Shown here piece by piece: positions 33,600 through 46,509 of a stretch of 64,000 bases of DNA. Below the pieces are notes generated by a model. The model did not search any database, was not told where the DNA came from, and saw nothing but the letters and a program-made list of their open reading frames with translations. The position numbers and the translations under genes are program-made. Source of the stretch: an uncultured Poribacteria bacterium (lineage in GTDB: Bacteria > Poribacteria > WGA-4E > WGA-3G); NCBI GenBank assembly GCA_958296135.2, contig CATQHZ020000001.1, positions 3,776,001 to 3,840,000 on the forward strand, read 5' to 3'. The first letter of the stretch is position 1. Each line of letters starts with the position of its first letter.

Positions 33600-34312
33600 T
33601 GAAAATCTTAGGTATTGACACCGCAACCCCTATCGGAAGCGTCGCCTTAATTGATGGCGAAAGCCTCATCGCAGAGCATACGCTCAATATCGTGCAAGCG
33701 CACTCCTCGCGACTCATGCCTGCGATTGACACCGTCCTCAAATGGGGCGACATCACCGCGGCGGAACTCGACGGATGCGCCGTCGGCATCGGACCGGGTT
33801 CCTTCACCGGCATCCGCATCGGCATCGCAACAATCAAATCGCTCTGTTACGCACTTGATAAACCGATTGTCGGCGTTTCAACGCTAGAATCCATCGCCTA
33901 TAACCTGCGCTGGACTGAAGGCATCATCTGCCCAATACTCGATGCACGACGGAACGAGATTTACGGGGCTATCTTCCGCGGTGGAGACAAATGGCAACGC
34001 CTCAGCGATGATTGCTGTGTAACGGTTGCGTCATTTCTTGCGGAATTTAGCAAGACTAGAAGGGTTCTCCTATCGGAAATCGAGACCGGGGGGACGCACC
34101 TACTGCCGTGCACCTTCGTTGGCGATGGACTGGAGATTTATGCGGATGCGGTGCAGGCGGTACTAGGCGAAGAAATCCGCTTCGCCGATGCAATTTTCAA
34201 TGTGCCGCGCGGTGCGACAGTCGCACACCTCGGCGCGCAACGCTTACAAAATGGGGACAGCGATAGTTATTGGACTTTAGTGCCGAACTATGTTAGAATA
34301 GGGCTCTATTGA
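33599..34312 (+). CDS. tsaB: tRNA threonylcarbamoyladenosine biosynthesis protein
   Basis: LGIDTAT, HS..LMP.I, GPGSFTGIRIG, LDARRNEIY. Confidence 0.95.
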   Translation: MKILGIDTATPIGSVALIDGESLIAEHTLNIVQAHSSRLMPAIDTVLKWGDITAAELDGCAVGIGPGSFTGIRIGIATIKSLCYALDKPIVGVSTLESIAYNLRWTEGIICPILDARRNEIYGAIFRGGDKWQRLSDDCCVTVASFLAEFSKTRRVLLSEIETGGTHLLPCTFVGDGLEIYADAVQAVLGEEIRFADAIFNVPRGATVAHLGAQRLQNGDSDSYWTLVPNYVRIGLY

Positions 34313-37300
34313 GGAGGGAAACTACCTTGTTTAAGGATTATCTCAGAGAAATAGAGCAGAAATGGCACAGCGGCCGCGCAACCGAACATACCTATCGCTC
34401 GAATCTGGAGCGGTTGCTCACCGATTTTCTGAAATCCGATGAGTATACCGTAATCAACGAACCGACGCACCTCGGGCGCAACGCACCGGACATGCTCATC
34501 CTCAAGAATCAGCAACCAGTCGGCTACATTGAGGCGAAAAATATTGGGGCTAACCTTGACAAAGTTGAGGAAACAGAGCAGCTCCAACGCTACCGAAACG
34601 GGTTGGAAAACCTGATTCTGACAGATTACCTCGAATTCCGCCTGTATCGCCAGAGCAAGAAGCACCAAAGCGTTCGGCTTGGTGATGTCTCGTCGCAGCG
34701 GCACTTTCAGTATCTTCCTGAAAACGAATCCGACATCAGGGATTTGCTGAACGCCTTCATCTACGGACATCAACCTGTCGTCGTCATCAGTCCGGAAGAT
34801 TTGGCGGCGCGGCTGAGTCAGAAGGCACTTCTCCTTCGCTACGGGATAAGCCGTATCCTAGAGAACGACAACGCCTCAAAACTCGGCGAACTCTTCGCGG
34901 CGTTCAAAGAGCATCTGGTTGAAGGGCTATCTCCATCGCAATTCGCGGACATGATAGCCCAAACGATGACTTACGGCCTGTTCGCCGCCCGCGCCGAACA
35001 CAAAAGCGGGCCGTTTACGCGAGAGAGTGCCGTGAAAGGTTTCTTGAAAACCAGTCCCTTCCTGCACGCAATTTTCACGCGTGCCGATAAGGGGCTCCAG
35101 GAAGATGCAAACCTGCTTTCACAAGAAATCCTGCTTGACGCGGATCTGAATTGGATTGTGGATGACTTGGTTGCATTCCTTGAGGCAAGCGATATCCATA
35201 ACCTCCTTAAGGGTGTTGCCCAAGGCGATGCCATTGTTCATTTTTATGAGACATTCTTAAGGGCATATAATCCGAACGAAAAGAAGTTGCGCGGGGTATA
35301 CTACACGCCGGATGCGGTTGTCTCTTACATTGTGCGCAGCGTCCACCAGATTTTGCAGAGAGACTTCGGTATTCCGAATGGGCTCGCCGCCACCGAAACC
35401 GTCGCGCAACACAGCGGCGCAGCGCGAACCCAACCGCGGGTAACAATTCTCGACCCGGCCACCGGCACCGGCACCTTCTTACGGCACGTCGTTGACAAGG
35501 TGCATGATGTCTACATAACCGCGCAAGGCAATTCTCCGCAAACCTGGCCCGATTACGTTCGGAAACATCTCCTGCCGCGCCTCTTCGGTTTTGAACTGAT
35601 GGTAGCACCGTATGCGATGTGTCACCTCAGTTTAACGCAGCACCTTGTCAGAATGGGTTACCACTTTACGGAAGACGAACGGCTGCATGTTTATCTCACC
35701 AATACGCTGGACGAACGTGACTTGCAGCTCTATCTCGCTGAGGAGAACGCAATCGCGAAAGAGGGCGATGCCGCCATCAAAATTAAGAAGTTATATCAAC
35801 TGATGGTTATCCTTGGCAACCCGCCTTATGCTGTCCACTCGGCAAACAAAAGCGATTGGATTCACAACCTGCTGCGCGGTTTCGATGGTAGCGACACTGA
35901 GACAGCGAACTACTTCCAAGTTGATGGGCAGCCACTCAACGAGAGAAACCCGAAGATGCTCAACGATGACTACGTCAAATTTTTCCGATTCGCGCAGTGG
36001 CATATTGAACGGACAGGTTATGGCGTGCTCGGCCTCATTACCAACCACGGCTACCTTGACAATCTCACCTTCCGGGGAATGCGGGAAAGTTTGATGCGCA
36101 CCTTTGACGAAATTTACCTGCTGAACCTGCACGGGAATCTGAGAAAAAAAGAGAAAACTCCCGACGGTGGGAAAGACGAGAACGTGTTTGATATCATGCA
36201 AGGAGTTGCAATCGGCTTCTTTGTCAAAAAGGAAGGAGACGCGAACCTACCCTGCCGTGTCTTTTACGCCGACAGCTGGGGAAACCGCGCAAGCAAAATG
36301 AATTGGTTGGCGGAAAACGATATCCACACCACACCGTGGCGAGAAATTTCGCCTACGTCGCCGCACTACTTCTTTGTGCCTAAGGATGCAACCTACGTGG
36401 AAGAATACGAAAGCGGCATAAGCGTTAAGGAAATTTTCCAGGTCAATTCCGTAAGTATCTCTAGCGGCAGAGACAAATTAACGATTCACTGGACGCGAGA
36501 AGACGTACTACAAGTGGTTCGTCAATTCCGCTCGCTGTCGGTAGACGAGGCCTGTCAACGATTCAGTCTCGCCGAAGGGACAGTAGCACTTATACGAGCG
36601 GATCTGGACGAGCCCCCAGAGAGCCCTGGTACCGCCGAGCATATTGTGCCAATTTGCTATCGGCCGTTTGATACGCGCTTTACGTATTACACGGGACGCT
36701 CTGGCGGCTTTCACGACAGGCCGCGACGTGATGTAATGCAGCATTTCCTCAATGCTTCAAATGTGGGGTTGGTTACGGCTCGGTACAATCCACAAGCGTC
36801 TGGGTGGTGTCATGCCTTCGTCTCTCACAATATGCTAGCCATCTCCAACCAATACTACTTTTTTCCGCTCTACCGTTACCCAGATGGCGGAGAAGAACCT
36901 GAACCGAATTTTGCGGAAGGATTTGCCGAGCAACTCGCCCAAAATTTGGGGTTGCGTTTTATCGGATGCGGCTGTGGCGATTTGCACGAAACCTTTGGCG
37001 CGACAGATGTCCTACACTACCTCTATGCCGTGCTCTATGCTCCCAGTTATCGGGAACGCTACGCAGAATGCCTCAAAACTGATTTTCCGCGTATCGCGTT
37101 CACACATCAGCGAAACTTTTTCCAAGTGTTGTGTAAATTTGGCAAACGGTTAGTCAATTGCCATATCCCAACTTCAGAGGGCGAGGTTCACAAAAGCGAA
37201 CCTCGCTTCGATGTGGTGGGCAGCAACGTTGTCGGGCAAATTCGCTATGATGCATCAGTACCCCAGGTCTGGATAAATAAGCGTCAGTATTTTGAGGGAG

Positions 37301-37497
37301 TCATTCCGGAAGTGTGGCAATTTCAGATTGGCGCATATTCCCCTGCGCAAAATTGGCTGAAAGTTCGGAAGGGACGCATCTTGCAACCGGAGGATATTCG
37401 GCACTATCAGTCCATCTGCCAAGCCCTGCGTGAAACCCTATCGGTGATGGCAGAAATCGATAAGGAAATTGAACGGCATGGGGGATGGCCCTTGTAG
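34309..37497 (+). CDS. fused restriction-modification enzyme (type IIG / ISP-like; N6-adenine MTase)
   Basis: N-terminal PD...IEAK nuclease, GVYYTP, LDPATGTGTF, GNPPY, C-terminal YRPFD...DFPRI specificity region. Confidence 0.88.
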   Translation: MRRETTLFKDYLREIEQKWHSGRATEHTYRSNLERLLTDFLKSDEYTVINEPTHLGRNAPDMLILKNQQPVGYIEAKNIGANLDKVEETEQLQRYRNGLENLILTDYLEFRLYRQSKKHQSVRLGDVSSQRHFQYLPENESDIRDLLNAFIYGHQPVVVISPEDLAARLSQKALLLRYGISRILENDNASKLGELFAAFKEHLVEGLSPSQFADMIAQTMTYGLFAARAEHKSGPFTRESAVKGFLKTSPFLHAIFTRADKGLQEDANLLSQEILLDADLNWIVDDLVAFLEASDIHNLLKGVAQGDAIVHFYETFLRAYNPNEKKLRGVYYTPDAVVSYIVRSVHQILQRDFGIPNGLAATETVAQHSGAARTQPRVTILDPATGTGTFLRHVVDKVHDVYITAQGNSPQTWPDYVRKHLLPRLFGFELMVAPYAMCHLSLTQHLVRMGYHFTEDERLHVYLTNTLDERDLQLYLAEENAIAKEGDAAIKIKKLYQLMVILGNPPYAVHSANKSDWIHNLLRGFDGSDTETANYFQVDGQPLNERNPKMLNDDYVKFFRFAQWHIERTGYGVLGLITNHGYLDNLTFRGMRESLMRTFDEIYLLNLHGNLRKKEKTPDGGKDENVFDIMQGVAIGFFVKKEGDANLPCRVFYADSWGNRASKMNWLAENDIHTTPWREISPTSPHYFFVPKDATYVEEYESGISVKEIFQVNSVSISSGRDKLTIHWTREDVLQVVRQFRSLSVDEACQRFSLAEGTVALIRADLDEPPESPGTAEHIVPICYRPFDTRFTYYTGRSGGFHDRPRRDVMQHFLNASNVGLVTARYNPQASGWCHAFVSHNMLAISNQYYFFPLYRYPDGGEEPEPNFAEGFAEQLAQNLGLRFIGCGCGDLHETFGATDVLHYLYAVLYAPSYRERYAECLKTDFPRIAFTHQRNFFQVLCKFGKRLVNCHIPTSEGEVHKSEPRFDVVGSNVVGQIRYDASVPQVWINKRQYFEGVIPEVWQFQIGAYSPAQNWLKVRKGRILQPEDIRHYQSICQALRETLSVMAEIDKEIERHGGWPL

Positions 37498-39459: not shown

Positions 39460-40861
39460 TTTATTTGCAGTCGCCGTGGATTTGTGGTAGAATGTAGTTA
39501 CCGTTGGGGGCGAGACGGCTAGGTGCGGCTGCCCGCCGTGTCTCTCGCCCCACCTATCTAGCAGAAGGTGACAACCAACGGGAACGGTGACGCTATGGCA
39601 CTACGAGCCCAGAAGATAGCACTCAATCCAACTGAGGAACAGGTCGAGGCATTTAACCTGCATGTGCAATTCGCACGCGCCGCCTATAATGCCGCGCATT
39701 CTGATTGGAACGCCGACCGCCGTAACTCCCTCTATGATTTGAAGAAAATCTTCAACTCACGGAAGCGCGAGGTGTTCCCCGAATTCGCCGCGTGTTCTCA
39801 AAACGCAGGCAAGACTGCTATCCACGCTTTCGGTGATGCTATCGCCAGATACAAATCGGGACAGAATGGTGCGCCCAAACGGAAGACGCATAAGTCTCGC
39901 CCCGCGTTCCAGATTGATAATGGTGTGGATAGCGTCAAAATAACGGAGGACGGCAAACACGTCGTCCTCCCGATAATTGGACAGGTTAGGTTGCATGAAA
40001 CCCCTCGATGGACAGGTGAAGTTCGCCGTGCTTTCGTCAAACGCATCGCACATCGTTGGTATCTCAGCATCCTCGTCGACGTTAACGAACCGGAACCGCC
40101 TGATAGTTCCAACCTGCCCGCCGCAGGTTGTGATGTCGGCATCTCTGCCCTCGCCACGATGGACGATGGCACTGTCTATGAAAATCCGCGTGCCTTGCGC
40201 GTCAATGAACGCAAACTACGCCGTGCAAATAAGGCACTCGCCCGCAAGACGTTCATGAGCCGCAACTGGTGGAAGGCGAAGGAACGCCTCGCCCGCCTGC
40301 ATGCCCGTATCGCCAATGTGCGAACCGATGCCCATCATCAGGCGACACATCGCATCCTGCAAGGCATCTCGGCACTTGGCATCGAGAGCCTCACCGTCAA
40401 AGGTTTGATGAAAAATCGCAAGCTGAGCAAGGCACTCGCCGATGCAAGTCTTGGCGGCTTCCTCGTCAAACTCAAATATAAGGCGGTGTGGCGTGGCATC
40501 CGCATTGTGTCAGCAGATAAGTTCTGGCCGTCAACACAGCGATGCAGTTCTTGTGGATACGTCAAACGTGGCGAATTCAAACTGACGCTCAAGGACAGAG
40601 AATATCACTGCGGCATCTGCGGATGGGTAGAGGACAGAGACGTTAACGCCGCTATAAACCTTCGACAGCTCGCCTCAAGCACTGAGGAGAGTCAAAACGC
40701 CTGTGGAGATGCTGTAACACCTACTTTGGTAGGCTGGCATCAGAACCCGCGTGTGCGCGGAAGAAGCAGGAAACCGCTGACCGAACAGAGACTCGTAGAC
40801 TTTGCACAGGTTTCCAGATAAGTCTACATTTGACGAGATGCTCATAGGTTATGTAGTGCGG
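39460..40861 (+). mobile_element. non-autonomous tnpB-only element, IS607-like; left end uncertain
   Basis: No tnpA; GC hairpin at 39507-39551; 3' region ends ...GTAGTGCGG, resembling IS607-type right ends. Confidence 0.5.
39595..40821 (+). CDS. tnpB: RNA-guided endonuclease TnpB (IS200/IS605/IS607 superfamily)
   Basis: RuvC-I GCDVG, RuvC-II IESL, CSSCG/CGICG Zn finger, RuvC-III DRDVNAAINL; TTGCAG-N17-TAGAAT promoter at 39465-39493. Confidence 0.93.
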   Translation: MALRAQKIALNPTEEQVEAFNLHVQFARAAYNAAHSDWNADRRNSLYDLKKIFNSRKREVFPEFAACSQNAGKTAIHAFGDAIARYKSGQNGAPKRKTHKSRPAFQIDNGVDSVKITEDGKHVVLPIIGQVRLHETPRWTGEVRRAFVKRIAHRWYLSILVDVNEPEPPDSSNLPAAGCDVGISALATMDDGTVYENPRALRVNERKLRRANKALARKTFMSRNWWKAKERLARLHARIANVRTDAHHQATHRILQGISALGIESLTVKGLMKNRKLSKALADASLGGFLVKLKYKAVWRGIRIVSADKFWPSTQRCSSCGYVKRGEFKLTLKDREYHCGICGWVEDRDVNAAINLRQLASSTEESQNACGDAVTPTLVGWHQNPRVRGRSRKPLTEQRLVDFAQVSR

Positions 40862-41174: not shown

Positions 41175-41936
41175 ATGGCAGCTCAAACATCCAAAATCGA
41201 GTGGACAGAATCAACTTGGAACCCCGTCCGCGGATGCACGCGGGTCTCAGAAGGGTGCCGGTTCTGTTATGCTGAACGGATCGCGTCGCGATTTTCTGAC
41301 GAAGGCATGGCATACGAGGGCCTCGCCGAAAACACCAAAGCCGGTCCGCGCTGGACACAGGAAGTCAGGATTGTCCGAGAAGCGTTCAAGGCACCCCTGA
41401 AATGGAGAAAACCGCGCCGAATTTTCGTCAATTCCATGAGCGACATCTTCCATGAAAAGATCGAATTATCGACGATTCAGGAGCTCTTCGATGTCATGAA
41501 GAAAGCGGATTGGCACCAATTCCAGCTCTTGACGAAGCGAGCAGAACGGCTATTGGCATGCAACGCCGCCTTGCCGTGGCCGCCGAACGTCTGGATGGGA
41601 GTGAGCGTGGAAGATGAGCAAGTTATGCATCGGATAGATGCGCTGCGGCAAACCGATGCGCGCATCAAATTCCTCTCACTTGAACCGCTCCTCGGTCCGC
41701 TTCCGAATTTAGACTTAAGCGGGATAGACTGGGTTATCGTCGGCGGAGAATCCGGTCCGGGTGCACGTCCGATGGATAAAGCATGGGTGATTGCCATCCG
41801 AGAGCGGTGTGCGGAGGCGGGTGTGCCGTTTTTCTTTAAGCAGTGGGGTGGCGTGCGTAAATCGAAAACGGGGCGCGAGTTGGATGGAAAATTTTATGAC
41901 GAGATGCCGCACACGCCGCTATTGCAAATGAGATAG
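41175..41936 (+). CDS. DUF5131 / phage Gp37-Gp68 family protein
   Basis: SKIEWT..TWNP..GC..VS.GC..CYA, FVNSMSD.FH, LTKR, SLEPLLG, GGESG, FFKQWGG. Confidence 0.92.
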   Translation: MAAQTSKIEWTESTWNPVRGCTRVSEGCRFCYAERIASRFSDEGMAYEGLAENTKAGPRWTQEVRIVREAFKAPLKWRKPRRIFVNSMSDIFHEKIELSTIQELFDVMKKADWHQFQLLTKRAERLLACNAALPWPPNVWMGVSVEDEQVMHRIDALRQTDARIKFLSLEPLLGPLPNLDLSGIDWVIVGGESGPGARPMDKAWVIAIRERCAEAGVPFFFKQWGGVRKSKTGRELDGKFYDEMPHTPLLQMR

Positions 41937-41956: not shown

Positions 41957-43579
41957 TCATGGAATCGCCCGTATCTGGCGGATTTCGGAAACCTCAGACA
42001 CCGGCGGCGAGATCGGTTCATGGAATGCCATCTTCGCGGCAATTCTCCCGTAACTGTAACCATCACGGCGGGCTAACAATCGTAAATCCGCAGTGGTGCC
42101 GCTTTTTCGCGAATCTTTCACATCCGGTGCGAAATATTTGACACGGCATCTACGCGGCTTCCCTTTGGGCGTTTTATCAAAGCAGTTAATAACCCCGCGC
42201 CATTTCGTCCCATCTTGCGTTGTGAGCTCAACATGGTCCAACCGCCGGAACCCGTTGCTTTCCGCCCGTTTTTCATTCGGGAGGAAGAAGCCCGGGGCCT
42301 TCATCTTGAAAGTCTTGCGCAGATTATCACGCCGTCCATATCCCTCCGCTTGAATCACGTCAACTTGGAGAGAACTTGGTTGTTTCGGGAGACACGCAAC
42401 CGCGGCCGCGTCGTAGTAATGCGTCTTTGGCAAGCCTGCGAGGTTTCGGTTATGTGCTGTTTTTCCGCCAGTCCCGCTGAGAACGGGCAACTTCATCGCC
42501 TTGAGTATTTCAAAGAGTTTCCAGCGAATCGTGTTCACTGCAGCAGCATCAGAAAGCCCTTTCTTTGACTTGCTCACAGCGGATTTGACCTTTTTCGCAA
42601 ACTTTTCACCGCATTTCGCTTCCAACGCGTCACCGACAAGATTGCCCTTTTTCGCGTTGCACGGACGACACGCCATCGTGAGATTGTCGGGGCGACTGGA
42701 ACCGCCTTTCGCTTTAGGGAGGATGTGTTCAACCTCAAGGCGAACATTTTTGTCCCCACAATAGGCGCACTTTCGTCCGGTGAGTTCCAAGAGGTATTCG
42801 CGAATTTCGCGCCCGTGAAGTGTGCCTTGTTGATATTGAATCCCATGAATGTTGGGCTTGTCCATCAACTGCATATCAAACTTCACCGTTTCAATCGCGA
42901 GCCGTGTTATCGGAGAGACTTTGCGGTATCGCCGCGTCCACGTCTCTATATTGAAAACACGGGACATGAGGCTCGGTGCAACCCATCCGTTATCCGCGCG
43001 CTTTTGATGAGCAACACGGACGCGCTTCCAACGCTTCTTTTGGCGTTGATTCGTTTTCGTTTTCGGCAGACGTTCCCACCGATACCGCGGATCTCGCAAT
43101 TGTGCCCACGAGACGCGATTGAAGTGATTCTGCGTTTGACTCGTATCCGTGCCTTCTGGGGCCTTGGCGCGTTGATACGTCCATCCCTCGTCAGTCAGCA
43201 CCGGCACTTTTCGTCCGCGGTTTGCCCAACGCGCAGGACGATACCGTAGATTCCGAGTGCGGCGACCGCGGCGGAATCCAGACCGGTTAGTCAACGCTTT
43301 CTTTATCTGCCTTCCACGATGGTGGAGTTCCGCGGCATAGATGATATCGCCAGTCTCCGATGTGATGGCGATGCCCGATGTTTTTGAACCCGGATCCCAA
43401 CTCAGGGTGTAGTTCCCGGTAACAATCTCATCGGCAGGCACCGCTTTTTTCAGGATGATTGTAAACGGATGTCGGTTCCAAACAGCCGCCTCACCACGCT
43501 TCAATAAACGTCGCGCTATTGCCGGGTGGCACGGTTCCAATACGTTCTTGTTTCTATCAATCACAAAAACTTTTGACAT
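41957..43579 (-). CDS. iscB: RNA-guided endonuclease IscB (540 aa), CRISPR-associated
   Basis: PLMP-like N-terminus (VLEPCHPAIARRLL...PFTIIL), RuvC-I WDPGSK, Arg-rich bridge helix RRGRRTRNLRYR, RuvC-II IETVKFD, HNH CAYC..EHILP..GG...NL..AC..CN..KG, RuvC-III THYYDA; RBS GGAGAGG. Confidence 0.95.
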   Translation of the reverse strand: MSKVFVIDRNKNVLEPCHPAIARRLLKRGEAAVWNRHPFTIILKKAVPADEIVTGNYTLSWDPGSKTSGIAITSETGDIIYAAELHHRGRQIKKALTNRSGFRRGRRTRNLRYRPARWANRGRKVPVLTDEGWTYQRAKAPEGTDTSQTQNHFNRVSWAQLRDPRYRWERLPKTKTNQRQKKRWKRVRVAHQKRADNGWVAPSLMSRVFNIETWTRRYRKVSPITRLAIETVKFDMQLMDKPNIHGIQYQQGTLHGREIREYLLELTGRKCAYCGDKNVRLEVEHILPKAKGGSSRPDNLTMACRPCNAKKGNLVGDALEAKCGEKFAKKVKSAVSKSKKGLSDAAAVNTIRWKLFEILKAMKLPVLSGTGGKTAHNRNLAGLPKTHYYDAAAVACLPKQPSSLQVDVIQAEGYGRRDNLRKTFKMKAPGFFLPNEKRAESNGFRRLDHVELTTQDGTKWRGVINCFDKTPKGKPRRCRVKYFAPDVKDSRKSGTTADLRLLARRDGYSYGRIAAKMAFHEPISPPVSEVSEIRQIRAIP

Positions 43580-43594
43580 AATGTCCTCTCCTGC

Positions 43595-43857
43595 TACTGC
43601 AGAAGGTAATGTGAGCCTCGCCAATGTTATCTCTGCTTAATTCAGGGTTGACTGCCTCATCTTGACAAGAGACTGTTTACAGAGCCCCCACAGTGCTCCC
43701 GACTGGCTCCATCGGCGATCCGACGTATCTGGAGGTGTGATAACAGAGATAACGTAGTTAGTGAAAACTTAAGCTAGATACCGATTCAATTAGGCAACAA
43801 GGATTCCACCCCTTGTTCCCCGCTCCGCAAGCGGAGCTAACATGGTTTCATTGCAAC
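43595..43857 (-). ncRNA. omega RNA (HEARO-like) scaffold with repeat-complementary 5' region
   Basis: On the minus strand, in order: TAGCTTAAG, CTACGTT, ACACC, GCCAGTC, TAAACAG, GGCAGT, AACATTGGCGAGG, ATTACC; long-range stem GTTATCTCTG/CAGAGATAAC; directly upstream of iscB; exact ends inferred. Confidence 0.85.
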
Positions 43858-43858
43858 T

Positions 43859-43950
43859 TTGCTGTCAACCTCCCGCAACATTTGCGTTATTGGAGGTAGA
43901 CAGCAAGTCCTTACGCCGCAAGCACGGATGCACACGGCGTGATGCCGAGC
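43859..43950 (+). promoter_or_regulatory. putative CRISPR leader with inverted repeat
   Basis: TTGCTGTCAACCTCC-N16-GGAGGTAGACAGCAA ending 44 bp before the first perfect repeat; degenerate repeats are at the far end. Confidence 0.6.
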
Positions 43951-45260
43951 GTTGCAACTTTACCATGCTCAAGCGGTAACTGAAGGATTTAAGCCGACTC
44001 CGCGCAGCCGGAAACGCGTTGCAACTTTACCATGCTCAAGCGGTAACGGTTCCATCTCGATGCGAGTTTGCGTCGTGCGGCACTGGTTGCAACTTTACCA
44101 TGCTCAAGCGGTAACGCTGCGCTTTGCGGTTTAGCTCTCCCCACGCGATTGTTGCAACTTTACCATGCTCAAGCGGTAACTCGTAAGGATAGGCGAGTGC
44201 CTTGTCAATGAGGCGTTCGTTGCAACTTTACCATGCTCAAGCGGTAACTTTACCTAAACTATAATGCGTAAAATTGACAATCTCTAGTTGCAACTTTACC
44301 ATGCTCAAGCGGTAACGCGTGTCGTAAGATTCTGCCGCCGCGTAGATGGAATGCGTTGCAACTTTACCATGCTCAAGCGGTAACCTTCATCGTAAGCCTC
44401 TTCATCGTAGGTGAAGAATTGTTGCAACTTTACCATGCTCAAGCGGTAACCGCTTGATGAACCTGCTGTTGATGAACCCCAGCAGGGCAGGGCGGCGTTG
44501 CAACTTTACCATGCTCAAGCGGTAACCAGCATCTTGAAAAACAAGGTGCGGGTGCTGCGAGCGTTGCAACTTTACCATGCTCAAGCGGTAACAGGTTTTT
44601 ACGTCTACTTGCGCCGGCCCGCCAGCCGGCGCGGTTGCAACTTTACCATGCTCAAGCGGTAACTGAACACGAAGGGCGGGGTGACGCGCATGGGCGTGAG
44701 TTGCAACTTTACCATGCTCAAGCGGTAACCTCTGTATAACCTATGTTAATCCCGTCAAATCTAGTTGCAACTTTACCATGCTCAAGCGGTAACCTAAAAT
44801 ATCCATTACATCTTTAGGCATTGCCAGCCTCGTTGCAACTTTACCATGCTCAAGCGGTAACTTAAGGTCTTCGTGAAGCCCTCCCTGCCCGTCCAGGTTG
44901 CAACTTTACCATGCTCAAGCGGTAACCATTGCAGACGAGCATTGATGTGAAGACCGGACGACTGTTGCAACTTTACCATGCTCAAGCGGTAACGTCATAG
45001 ATGGCTTCTAGCATAGGCGTGAGACGCGGTGTTGCAACTTTACCATGCTCAAGCGGTAACGCGCAGCGTCAGTCTCGGTAGCCGGTGCGGGTGCCGGTGT
45101 TGCAACTTTACCATGCTCAAGCGGTAACTTTTGGGGTTGATTTGCGCTCATGGCGTTGCCGACAGGTTGCAACTTTACCATGCACAAGCGGTAACAAATA
45201 CTGACAGCGATACGACTTCCCGCCAGAACCGTTTCAACTTTACCATGCTCAGGTGGTAAC
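43951..45260. CRISPR. CRISPR array: 20 repeats (30 bp, GTTGCAACTTTACCATGCTCAAGCGGTAAC) and 19 spacers (34-46 bp)
   Basis: 18 identical repeats; repeat 19 (45166) has 1 change and repeat 20 (45231) has 3; spacers are unique. Confidence 0.99.
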
Positions 45261-45275
45261 CGGCAACTATGTTAA

Positions 45276-45304
45276 AGTATACCACGCTTTCTTCTGAATT
45301 GCAA
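45276..45304 (-). promoter_or_regulatory. sigma70 promoter firing into the array toward iscB
   Basis: Minus strand TTGCAA-N17-TATACT with extended TG; same architecture as the promoters at 8007 and upstream of tRNA-Ala. Confidence 0.75.
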
Positions 45305-45378: not shown

Positions 45379-46302
45379 TCATACAAGTTTGTTCAAATCG
45401 ACAGGTAACCCGACAGATTTCATTTCCTGAGCCAGTCTCAGTTTCCATCCATCCTCGCTCTTCATTGGAATATAAAGGAGTCCATCAAGATCGGAGGGGT
45501 TTTCTAGTTCCCCTTTAACGAGCAAACAGACTCTTCCGCGTTCCAACTTTCCTTGAAAATAGCCGAGTTCTAGGATGACGTTTTGACGAGCCCGAAGTTT
45601 GAGATCCTCATCTGCTTCATTCCTTAGGGCACCAACATCATCGGGAGTCAGCAAAGCAATAGCAAACCTAACGTTGTTTGCCAATTGCTCAAGCTTCTCA
45701 ATAATCGTTAGACCGGAGTTGGGTTGGTTTTCAAGGATGATTTCCTTGAATCCTAAATCCCTGAGGAACAAAACGACAGCGTTTTTCGCCGCATCGTCCC
45801 GTCCATGCACGATAAACACTGAAGTGTCCGCAGGAGTGTCTGAAGGTAGATTACGCAGATTTATCTTTCCCACCGTTTCAGATCTGGCTTCCACCGTAGA
45901 ACCTTCTTGTGCTATCTGTAACCGTGTTAACTGTTCCGGATCCAAAACCGATATTTCGCCATCATCAACAGAATCCACCTCTTTTGCCTTCGGGTGATAG
46001 GAGAGGTAGGAACGTTCCCCTTTTCTTTCTTCGATGATAGCGAGCCATATACCGCCGCAACTCCCTTCGCAGCACAGCGTTTTTTGTCTGTCGCAGAGTT
46101 TGATTTCAAGTTGATGCGAAGCCCCCCAGGGACAAGCAATGTCAATAAATTCGTGAGGTTGTGCCGGCGTGGAAAGAAGGACTTTCCATGCACCACCTCG
46201 TTGCAAGATACCATGCACCTTCTTACCTGTCGTATCTACGATAAGAAGGTCTTTCCCATCAAATGCCCCTGAAGGAAGCATTCCATTATAAGGTCTATAC
46301 AT
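45379..46302 (-). CDS. TIR-like nucleotide-binding domain protein (CAP12/Pycsar-type TIR at the C-terminus)
   Basis: VFIVHGRD, TIIEKLE, LLTPDD, RARQNVILELGYF, PSDLDG; RBS AAGGAG. Confidence 0.88.
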   Translation of the reverse strand: MYRPYNGMLPSGAFDGKDLLIVDTTGKKVHGILQRGGAWKVLLSTPAQPHEFIDIACPWGASHQLEIKLCDRQKTLCCEGSCGGIWLAIIEERKGERSYLSYHPKAKEVDSVDDGEISVLDPEQLTRLQIAQEGSTVEARSETVGKINLRNLPSDTPADTSVFIVHGRDDAAKNAVVLFLRDLGFKEIILENQPNSGLTIIEKLEQLANNVRFAIALLTPDDVGALRNEADEDLKLRARQNVILELGYFQGKLERGRVCLLVKGELENPSDLDGLLYIPMKSEDGWKLRLAQEMKSVGLPVDLNKLV

Positions 46303-46509
46303 TATTTCTCCTTCCACCCGCAGTTCCAGAAAACCCGCACCAGCATCGTTACATTTCAAGGGAAACCGTTAAGTTCTCTCATACCATCGGTGCATGAGCG
46401 CAGCGTTACCATAACCCGACACCGCAATGGCGATGCGAAGCCGGTAACTGAACGTACCTGCATCCTTTTCTTTTAATTATACACGAAATGGTTAGAAATG
46501 TCAATTTTT

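Follow-up and report, generated by a model that had tools for sequence, protein, structure and literature searches.

A CRISPR-associated IscB locus of Candidatus Poribacteria whose array is flanked by a type I-B-leader-like element on the strand antisense to iscB

Cas9 is considered to descend from IscB, and the locus family described here addresses the open question of how an effector of this kind came by a route of adaptation in the first place. The closest described systems are those of KraIscB-1 and DelIscB (Altae-Tran et al. 2021, via PMC11610941, PMC12660989, and PMC10734277), which are associated with CRISPR arrays; independent IscB-CRISPR associations are noted in the available parts of reviews (PMC10734277). 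The available passages of these accounts describe a small IscB with RuvC and HNH domains, preceded on the same strand by a HEARO/omega RNA and, further upstream, by the array, with a duplex between repeat and anti-repeat and without adjacent adaptation genes; the same passages are silent on the leader, on the end at which spacers are gained, and on the integrase serving the array. The locus analyzed here, which lies in a stretch of 64,000 nucleotides (nt) from an uncultured, sponge-symbiotic Candidatus Poribacteria bacterium (assembly GCA_958296135.2, contig CATQHZ020000001.1, positions 3,776,001 to 3,840,000; hereafter, the window), has the same layout. Differently from those accounts, an inverted type I-B-leader-like module beside the array and a type I-B adaptation module in the host genome could be identified. 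On balance, we favor the explanation that this is a domesticated CRISPR-associated IscB, which borrows the type I-B adaptation machinery of its host.

The iscB gene (41957..43579, minus strand) encodes 540 amino acids from an ATG at 43579, with a Pfam RRXRR domain (188 bits) and HNH_5/HNH domains. In phmmer searches, its product matched solved IscB structures (TbaIscB, E 4e-37; OgeuIscB, E 1e-21); homologues at 55–83% identity exist, and the residues that we take to be the catalytic ones are invariant across 25 homologues. Directly upstream, on the same strand, lies the omega RNA scaffold (Rfam HEARO RF02033; 43606..43841, minus strand), which was matched by cmscan over the full model (1–211) with 83.4 bits (E 2.3e-16), i.e., barely above the gathering score of 83. 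The array adjoins the omega RNA and consists of 20 repeats and 19 spacers (43951..45260; read, as argued below, on the minus strand, its integration orientation being, by the leader, the plus strand). The repeat, GTTGCAACTTTACCATGCTCAAGCGGTAAC on the plus strand, is 30 nt long, its copies are spaced 64–76 nt, and it has no further copy in the 5.19-Mb source genome (G000); its pattern had 0 matches in metagenome contigs. The spacers measure 34–46 nt, with 16/19 falling between 35 and 38 nt. Eighteen repeats are identical, and the two right-most ones are degenerate, with one mismatch at 45166–45195 and three at 45231–45260, the oldest spacer being located between them (45166..45260, minus strand). 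Both the dimensions of the array and the decay at its right end are as the initial annotation, made by a model on the letters of the window, had described them. There are no cas genes among the annotated genes at 34–52 kb of the window, and no adaptation genes beside IscB. The locus is a CRISPR-associated IscB system, that is, a system of a known kind.

The window was aligned with eight other Poribacteria loci in which an array lies directly upstream of IscB, for a total of nine (window, L035, L036, L038, L039, L040, L045, L046, and L047); L035 and L047 are located on the same contig of a congeneric sister species (G007), which is syntenic with the source genome at the IscB locus. The comparisons of 11 arrays also include L141 (from genome G030) and L145.

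In this nine-locus alignment, the 5' end of the omega RNA, read in the sense of IscB, corresponds to the reverse complement of the repeat in its entirety. In the window, the 5' half of such an anti-repeat (AAAGTTGCAATGAAACCATG; 43841..43860, minus strand, with GTTGCAATGAAACCATG at 43841–43857) pairs with the minus-strand repeat over the 3' two-thirds of the latter, while the 3' half (TCGGTATC; 43777..43784, minus strand) pairs with the repeat 5' end GTTACCG. The two halves are split by an insert of about 55 nt, forming two hairpins, which occurs in the window and in the sister species, the anti-repeat of the other seven loci being continuous; this is a difference also from KraIscB-1 and DelIscB as portrayed in the passages cited above. 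The repeat ends with GCGGTAAC on the plus strand and with GTTGCAAC on the minus strand. The initial annotation had assigned the pairing with the omega RNA to the GCGGTAAC end; the repeat does pair, but it does so along its whole length and not by that end alone. The duplex between the anti-repeat of the window and its own minus-strand repeat has a predicted energy of −29.4 kcal/mol, versus −20.8 kcal/mol for the repeat of the other strand. In 9/9 loci, the duplex with the minus-strand repeat ranges from −23 to −41 kcal/mol, and that with the other-strand repeat from −9 to −21 kcal/mol; in the most divergent loci (L046 and L045), the own partner pairs far better than foreign ones. Since the anti-repeat of the omega RNA complements the minus-strand repeat, the functional CRISPR RNA (crRNA) must, to judge from this complementarity, be the minus strand, with a spacer followed by its downstream repeat, similarly to a Cas9 crRNA with its trans-activating crRNA (tracrRNA). 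The descriptions of KraIscB-1 and DelIscB agree with this (PMC11610941 and PMC12660989).

The region between the omega RNA and the array (43860..43950, plus strand) resembles a type I-B leader, being composed of a 50-nt element (43860–43909) and of a 45-nt segment ending with AGC, without a promoter. Sequence inspection and the leader alignment disclosed an inverted repeat in the element, whose left arm (CTGTCAACCTCC, 43862..43873) and right arm (GGAGGTAGACAG, 43892..43903) are complementary at 11/12 positions; the arms can be extended to 43860–43873 and 43892–43905, and they end 45 nt before the first repeat, exactly the distance that the initial annotation had given as approximate. In order to compare this flank with true leaders, cas1b loci were retrieved from 30 of 49 family genomes with a match, and those with an array in reach yielded 27 type I-B leaders. 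These leaders have in common a 50-nt element (tgCCGTCaACCTCCCaGaGAATTTGCACgAttGGAGGTCGACAGCAA), whose distance upstream of the repeat is about 87 nt, an A-rich stretch that includes a TTGACA...TATAAT promoter, and a junction ending with AGC. The same element, asymmetric loop included, is present in the omega-proximal flank of every IscB array, colinear with the plus strand of the window. When the profile of the 27 leaders was run against the nine IscB flanks, the strand antisense to IscB scored 44.1, 44.1, 43.1, 36.3, 31.3, 24.2, 13.0, 10.3, and 3.3 bits (24.2 bits for the window), versus at most 10.6 bits for the opposite orientation in all nine. The weakest match is that of L047, whose element is interrupted by an 85-nt insertion in the loop; the other locus of the same contig, L035, carries the element too.

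A reduced profile of 25 leaders, from which those of G000 and G007 were left out, was then used with nhmmer over the whole source genome. The first match was the I-B leader of the genome itself (129 bits), followed by window positions 43860–43909 on the plus strand (26.0 bits, E 9.7e-6), the third-best match reaching 15.7 bits. The comparison of the flank with the leaders of other arrays in the genome, which the initial annotation had proposed, thus points to the I-B leader of the host; the resemblance to "many" type I-B leaders stated there holds within Poribacteria, to which the comparison was restricted. By simple local alignment, the match between the flank and the G000 I-B leader was marginal (23, versus 16 ± 2.2 and a maximum of 24 in shuffled sequences), and it became clear only with the many-leader profile; the simple local alignment showed no similarity of the flank to the I-D leader. 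As for shorter motifs, GTCGACCTCC occurs three times in the genome and TGCWGTCNACCT seven times, two of which are the window arms and one the I-B leader. A search with the pattern TTGACNGCAAANTTGCAA allowing two mismatches was dropped, because its reversed control was equally frequent in every genome.

The spacing of the element is also constrained. In 11/11 IscB arrays, the distance between the element and the repeat is exactly 45 nt, while the sequence in between varies; in the I-B leaders in which a simple pattern made it readable, it is 87 nt in 15, 86 in two, and 76 in one (of 27). The difference between 45 and 87 nt is 42 nt, which corresponds to four helical turns. The last three bases of the leader are AGC or AGG in 11/11 IscB flanks and in 26/27 I-B leaders. 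The 42 nt by which the IscB flanks are shorter are the segment that bears the promoter of the I-B leaders (TTGACA-18-TATCAT). The whole stretch of about 87 nt is replaced in the IscB flanks by 45 unrelated nucleotides; no promoter-like site was found in this interval in the scans of four loci, nor on the plus strand at 43860–43950. Altogether, the comparison supports homology between the window flank and the leader of the type I-B arrays in the host lineage, the flank being oriented with the array downstream of it on the plus strand.

As regards the enzymes that might serve the array, the source genome contains three arrays, two Cas1 matches, and two Cas2 matches, both pairs being located outside the window. 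At 3.64 Mb of contig C1, about 173 kb from the IscB array, there is a type I-D system, whose Cas1 is fused to Cas4 and whose repeat measures 37 nt; a complete type I-B system is found at 4.388–4.396 Mb of the same contig, about 575 kb from the IscB array. The operon of the latter comprises cas6, a large unassigned gene at the cas8 place, cas7, cas5, cas3, cas4, cas1b, and cas2, so that a type I adaptation module, as supposed in the initial annotation, does exist, with intact I-B cas1, cas2, and cas4. The host I-B array (G000:C1:4396604–4401380) contains about 72 copies of a 30-nt repeat (CTTTTAATCGCACCAGTTTGGAATTGAAAC) ending with ATTGAAAC. Its spacers are 33–41 nt long, and the mode is 38 nt in both this and the IscB array. 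More generally, the I-B arrays of the same family (G000 and 26 relatives) are similar to the IscB array in the 30-nt repeat, the 38-nt spacer mode, the leader element, and the AGC junction. They differ from it in the ATTGAAAC repeat end (a Cas6 substrate), in the leader promoter, in the distance of 87 nt between element and repeat, and in adjoining cas6-cas8-cas7-cas5-cas3-cas4-cas1-cas2, whereas the IscB array has no I-B operon beside it. The five IscB arrays with 12–27 repeats are all found in genomes with an intact I-B cas1 (G000, G007, G033, G009, and G030), and the three genomes without it (G062, G114, and G070) have no more than nine repeats, a distribution that fits, albeit weakly, a need for the I-B genes.

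The polarity of the array was then examined. A promoter-like site (TTGCAA-17-TG.TATACT; 45276..45304, minus strand) is located at its right end and points into the array, with a predicted start near 45269, in agreement with the initial annotation, which had placed there a promoter directed to the left. Six promoter-like sites were counted in the region, versus 2.1 ± 1.4 in shuffled sequences; the remaining ones lie inside the array, and those on the plus strand run from a spacer or repeat into the neighboring unit. The right-end site is conserved in the sister species (G007/L035), where it was the sole site compared. Distal sites pointing into the array are present in the window, L035, L046, and L047, that of L046 (11/12 matches) being the sole one found in 2.4 kb; no such site was found at the distal end of L036. 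The minus-strand repeat itself (e.g., 43951–43980) contains TGGTAAAGT, which resembles an extended −10 box; the motif is weaker in the repeats of the other loci, and TGGTATACT of the distal promoter looks like a decayed copy of the repeat segment bearing TGGTAAAGT.

A degenerate or truncated repeat is located at the IscB-distal end in 9/11 arrays (window, L035, L036, L038, L040, L045, L046, L047, and L141), L039 and L145 having no degenerate repeat at all, and the omega-proximal repeat is degenerate in 0/11. The distal flanks are unrelated between loci, save for the window and the sister species, while the proximal flank is conserved in all of them. In L038, the four omega-proximal repeats carry A in a G/A variant at repeat position 7, which fits a copying of the leader-side repeat; this variant was not counted as evidence, since L040 has it in one old repeat. 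That spacers are acquired at the omega-proximal end, with the array being read antisense, is an inference that the leader homology, the repeat decay, and the intact I-B module support well.

The locus is syntenic in the two congeneric species, between a 5-enolpyruvylshikimate-3-phosphate (EPSP) synthase gene and a DUF5131 gene, yet no spacer is common to the two, and no shared spacer was found among all 11 arrays. Since no spacer is common to any of them, the spacers have been replaced throughout and the arrays have turned over. This bears on the idea that the array no longer functions and is in decay, with an IscB next to it that works only with a single fixed guide, the likeness of the flank to a leader being due to chance. 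Some relatives do have very short or interrupted arrays (L039 and L145); however, a remnant would hardly maintain 18 identical repeats, nor would it be expected at a syntenic locus with entirely different spacers in two species, the leader match (genome-wide E 9.7e-6) recurs in 9/9 loci, and the putative catalytic residues of IscB are invariant, so that we regard this idea as very improbable.

Some peculiarities of single arrays were also observed. In L046 (3939–5699), the same protospacer is represented twice, by two 36-nt spacers with a 1-nt slip, and in L141 two identical 37-nt spacers lie two units apart; these duplicates point to either a repeated acquisition from a preferred site or a duplication of units. 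In L039 (5094–5667), one perfect repeat is followed by about 450 nt without repeats and then by three to four repeats (two to three spacers); the genome harboring it has no I-B cas1.

Class 1 integrases select a motif 5' of the protospacer, whereas IscB and Cas9 need a motif 3' of it. A type I integrase inserts the spacer so that, on the sense strand, the end proximal to the protospacer adjacent motif (PAM) abuts the leader-side repeat. In the arrangement that we favor, transcription would start from the promoter at the IscB-distal end (about 45290) and proceed on the minus strand through the array, the leader-like flank, the anti-repeat, the omega RNA, and iscB. The transcript would be processed by RNase III (an assumption of the model), and a spacer with its downstream repeat would dock, through the repeat, on the omega RNA anti-repeat, as a crRNA does with a tracrRNA, and guide IscB to DNA. 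New spacers would join at the opposite end, next to the omega RNA, at the promoter-less copy of the I-B leader on the other strand, and the integrase acting there might be the Cas1-Cas2-Cas4 of the host I-B system, encoded about 575 kb away. Antisense reading would then bring the PAM-proximal end of the spacer to a place directly 5' of the omega-RNA-docking repeat, and the 5' PAM would thereby fall, as its reverse complement, 3' of the IscB target, at the position of the target-adjacent motif (TAM). According to the available parts of two accounts, the IscB guide lies immediately 5' of the scaffold and the TAM 3' of the target (PMC11610941), and a guide of 16 nt was used for DelIscB (PMC12660989); a 16-nt guide taken from a 35–38-nt spacer would in this way adjoin the selected motif. 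Were spacers instead added at the promoter end, guides would be drawn from the PAM-distal end of spacers that vary in length, and IscB would have no selected motif; on this point, the geometry thus speaks for what the initial annotation had proposed.

The conversion of a PAM into a TAM by antisense reading is geometrically sound, and it stays an inference because the searches for protospacers were all empty. The whole array found no match in phage and plasmid collections, and parts of spacers had 0 matches in exact scans of viral contigs and of metagenome contigs. Against 112 family genomes, with the best three candidates per genome being scored, so that spacer matches may be missed, the repeats alone were matched. 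The spacers of the window and of G007 gave only chance-level matches of 17–25 nt in the source genome, and the 349 spacers of all loci a single 19-nt match in it, within the DUF5131 gene (41333–41351). The latter derives from spacer 16 of L036, whose repeat-proximal 19 nt match the window gene exactly (plus strand, E 4e-4), the rest being different; the true target of this spacer is probably a homologue of DUF5131 carried by a phage or mobile element, and no TAM can be read from it because the match is too short. The proposal of the initial annotation that the array is written from one end and read from the other with the help of a type I-B module is supported in part, namely by the homology of the leader, the presence of the module, the decay of the repeats, and the strand of the crRNA.

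Several points weigh against the borrowing of the I-B machinery. No acquisition event was seen: no two arrays share spacers, and the sequencing runs listed for the locus, four of them with its DNA, all from one study, and none of RNA, yielded contig pieces that, where they cover the window, agree with it fully, without joints or other spacers. No protospacer was found in any search, hence neither an I-B PAM nor an IscB TAM was read. The IscB and host I-B repeats are identical at only 14/30 positions, which makes the compatibility of the former with the I-B integrase uncertain. IscB arrays persist in genomes without I-B cas1: G062 (a single contig, 95% complete) is without any Cas1, G114 has only an I-D-like Cas4-Cas1, and G070 a cas1 fragment; G080, on the other hand, has an I-B cas1 yet carries 5–6 repeats. 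The link between array size and cas1 is weak because it is confounded with the clade, the four small arrays being members of a single IscB subclade. The degenerate first-transcribed repeat may be selected in order to silence an "extraneous" crRNA, as is proposed for type II-C in the available part of PMC12080349. Lastly, the IscB-sense inverted repeat keeps a G-U pair in 7/8 loci, which also fits a hairpin of the pre-crRNA/omega RNA; since the inverted repeat is nearly invariant, covariation decides nothing between a protein site and a hairpin, and the location of the element upstream of the −35 box in the I-B leaders could mark it as the site of a regulator.

The hairpin and the persistence of arrays in genomes without I-B cas1 are what might be expected if the leader element were a relic or a part of the IscB guide at the RNA level, i.e., if the array had once been copied from an I-B array, the inverted repeat were a transcript hairpin (for folding, processing, or stability), and spacers were gained rarely, or via recombination, the I-D module, or the distal end. 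A hairpin of 15–16 pairs is indeed predicted on the IscB-sense RNA, the G-U pair corresponding to an A-C mismatch on the other strand, and DelIscB is described, in the passages available, with a single long noncoding RNA and a repeat/anti-repeat hairpin (PMC12660989). However, in the I-B leaders, the element is located upstream of the array promoter and so outside the sense pre-crRNA, which indicates a role at the DNA level. Moreover, a relic would not hold the exact 45-nt distance and the AGC/AGG junction in 11/11 arrays while the intervening sequence varies, the distal flanks are unrelated between loci, and a complete spacer turnover needs an active integration route. For these reasons, such an explanation seems unlikely to us.

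Still less likely, in our opinion, is the explanation that the inverted repeat, instead of being an integration signal, is bound by a transcription regulator which the IscB locus and the I-B array have in common, and that array polarity has another cause. The element is palindromic, conserved by sequence and not by covariation, and located about 30 nt upstream of the −35 box in the I-B leaders, and TTGAC is present in each arm on one strand, all of which would suit a regulator. Nevertheless, no plus-strand promoter was found downstream of the element in the IscB flanks scanned, the nine-locus alignment reveals no conserved −10 box on the minus strand between the element and the anti-repeat, and the exact spacing from the repeat and the common junction triplet are features of integration sites.

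The borrowing of an I-B integrase through an inverted leader can be compared with three other kinds of described systems. A hallmark of type II-C is the presence of promoters inside the repeats. In type II-C, according to the available part of PMC12080349, spacers enter at the last repeat relative to transcription, and the first-transcribed, "extra" repeat gathers mutations. The likeness to the Poribacteria locus would consist in spacer entry at the last transcribed repeat and in a Cas9-like effector with a 3' motif; with such an entry, the leader position and the repeat decay fit, no pair of arrays sharing spacers. The differences are that type II-C has its own Cas1-Cas2 beside cas9 and a promoter in each repeat (PMC12080349), whereas the Poribacteria locus lacks an adjacent integrase, has a leader of the I-B kind, and has a single predicted distal promoter. 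Adaptation in trans is known from Listeria seeligeri, where type VI-A uses the Cas1-Cas2 of type II-C (bioRxiv 10.1101/2024.10.25.620265), and PMC8092290 is also on the topic of adaptation in trans between CRISPR types, both being available in part. As proposed for the window, an effector locus without an integrase is served there by that of a co-resident system; in the cases described in those parts, the borrowed array is read in the ordinary sense, whereas here the antisense reading would convert the side of the motif. Finally, inverted repeats of type I-F leaders dock the integrase, being bound by Cas2, and direct insertion to foreign repeats, so that the site is set by the leader motifs and not by the repeat sequence, as stated in the available part of bioRxiv 10.1101/2023.05.26.542337. 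The inverted-repeat motifs at a fixed distance upstream of the first repeat are common to both cases, while the subtype and the motif differ, and the Poribacteria element is a putative protein site only.

CRISPR-associated IscB, last-repeat acquisition in type II-C, borrowed integrases, and inverted repeats in I-F leaders are, therefore, already known. What is new here, provisionally, is the homology of the IscB-array flank to the leader element of Poribacteria I-B arrays, antisense to IscB. Neither a class 1 leader on the opposite strand of an IscB array nor an antisense conversion of a PAM into a TAM is described in the literature found, a search that did not extend to the text and supplements of the primary paper on CRISPR-associated IscB, which is why the claim of novelty is provisional. 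If the model is true, reading the array backwards is a concrete answer to the mismatch between the 5' motif of class 1 and the 3' motif of IscB and Cas9, and it offers a reason why type II-C arrays have their odd polarity. Somewhat speculatively, IscB and its omega RNA might have captured an inverted class 1 (I-B) leader-repeat unit, which would receive from a type I integrase, acting with Cas4, spacers with a 5' PAM that turns into a 3' TAM; the inherited geometry would then explain the last-repeat acquisition of type II-C, provided that type II-C keeps the early arrangement. The locus names defined parts, i.e., the I-B Cas1-Cas2-Cas4, the leader element, the repeat, IscB, and the omega RNA, and this makes the idea testable in E. 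coli.

Other features of the region and of the genome deserve mention. Between the array promoter and the EPSP synthase gene, a 326-aa protein is encoded (45379–46359, minus strand) with a TIR effector domain of the CAP12/Pycsar type (127 bits); its gene is absent from the syntenic locus of the sister species, in which the array and the EPSP synthase gene are about 400 nt apart, and it may be a defense gene inserted beside the IscB system. On the other side, all on the plus strand, are located a type ISP restriction-modification enzyme (34309–37497), a TnpB-like OrfB_IS605/Cas12f-TNB protein (39568–40821), and the DUF5131 (phage Gp37/Gp68-like) gene (41175–41936), so that the neighborhood of IscB looks like a defense island; no TnpA was seen beside IscB. 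In the sister species, the two IscB loci with arrays, L035 and L047, are about 20 kb apart, and their IscB proteins are, respectively, 78% and 45% identical to that of the window. Contig C2 of the source genome (143,886 bp) has a G+C content of 36.8%, versus 54.4% for the chromosome, and may represent a plasmid or a phage, or else contamination of the bin. On contig C1, a simple array finder also disclosed more than 100 short clusters whose units are palindromic and rich in G+C, such as CCGTAGCGCGAGGGACAGGCCCTCGC (e.g., at 162633–162936 and 2651544–2651946), which appear to be a dispersed family of repeats of the source genome similar to repetitive extragenic palindromic (REP) elements.

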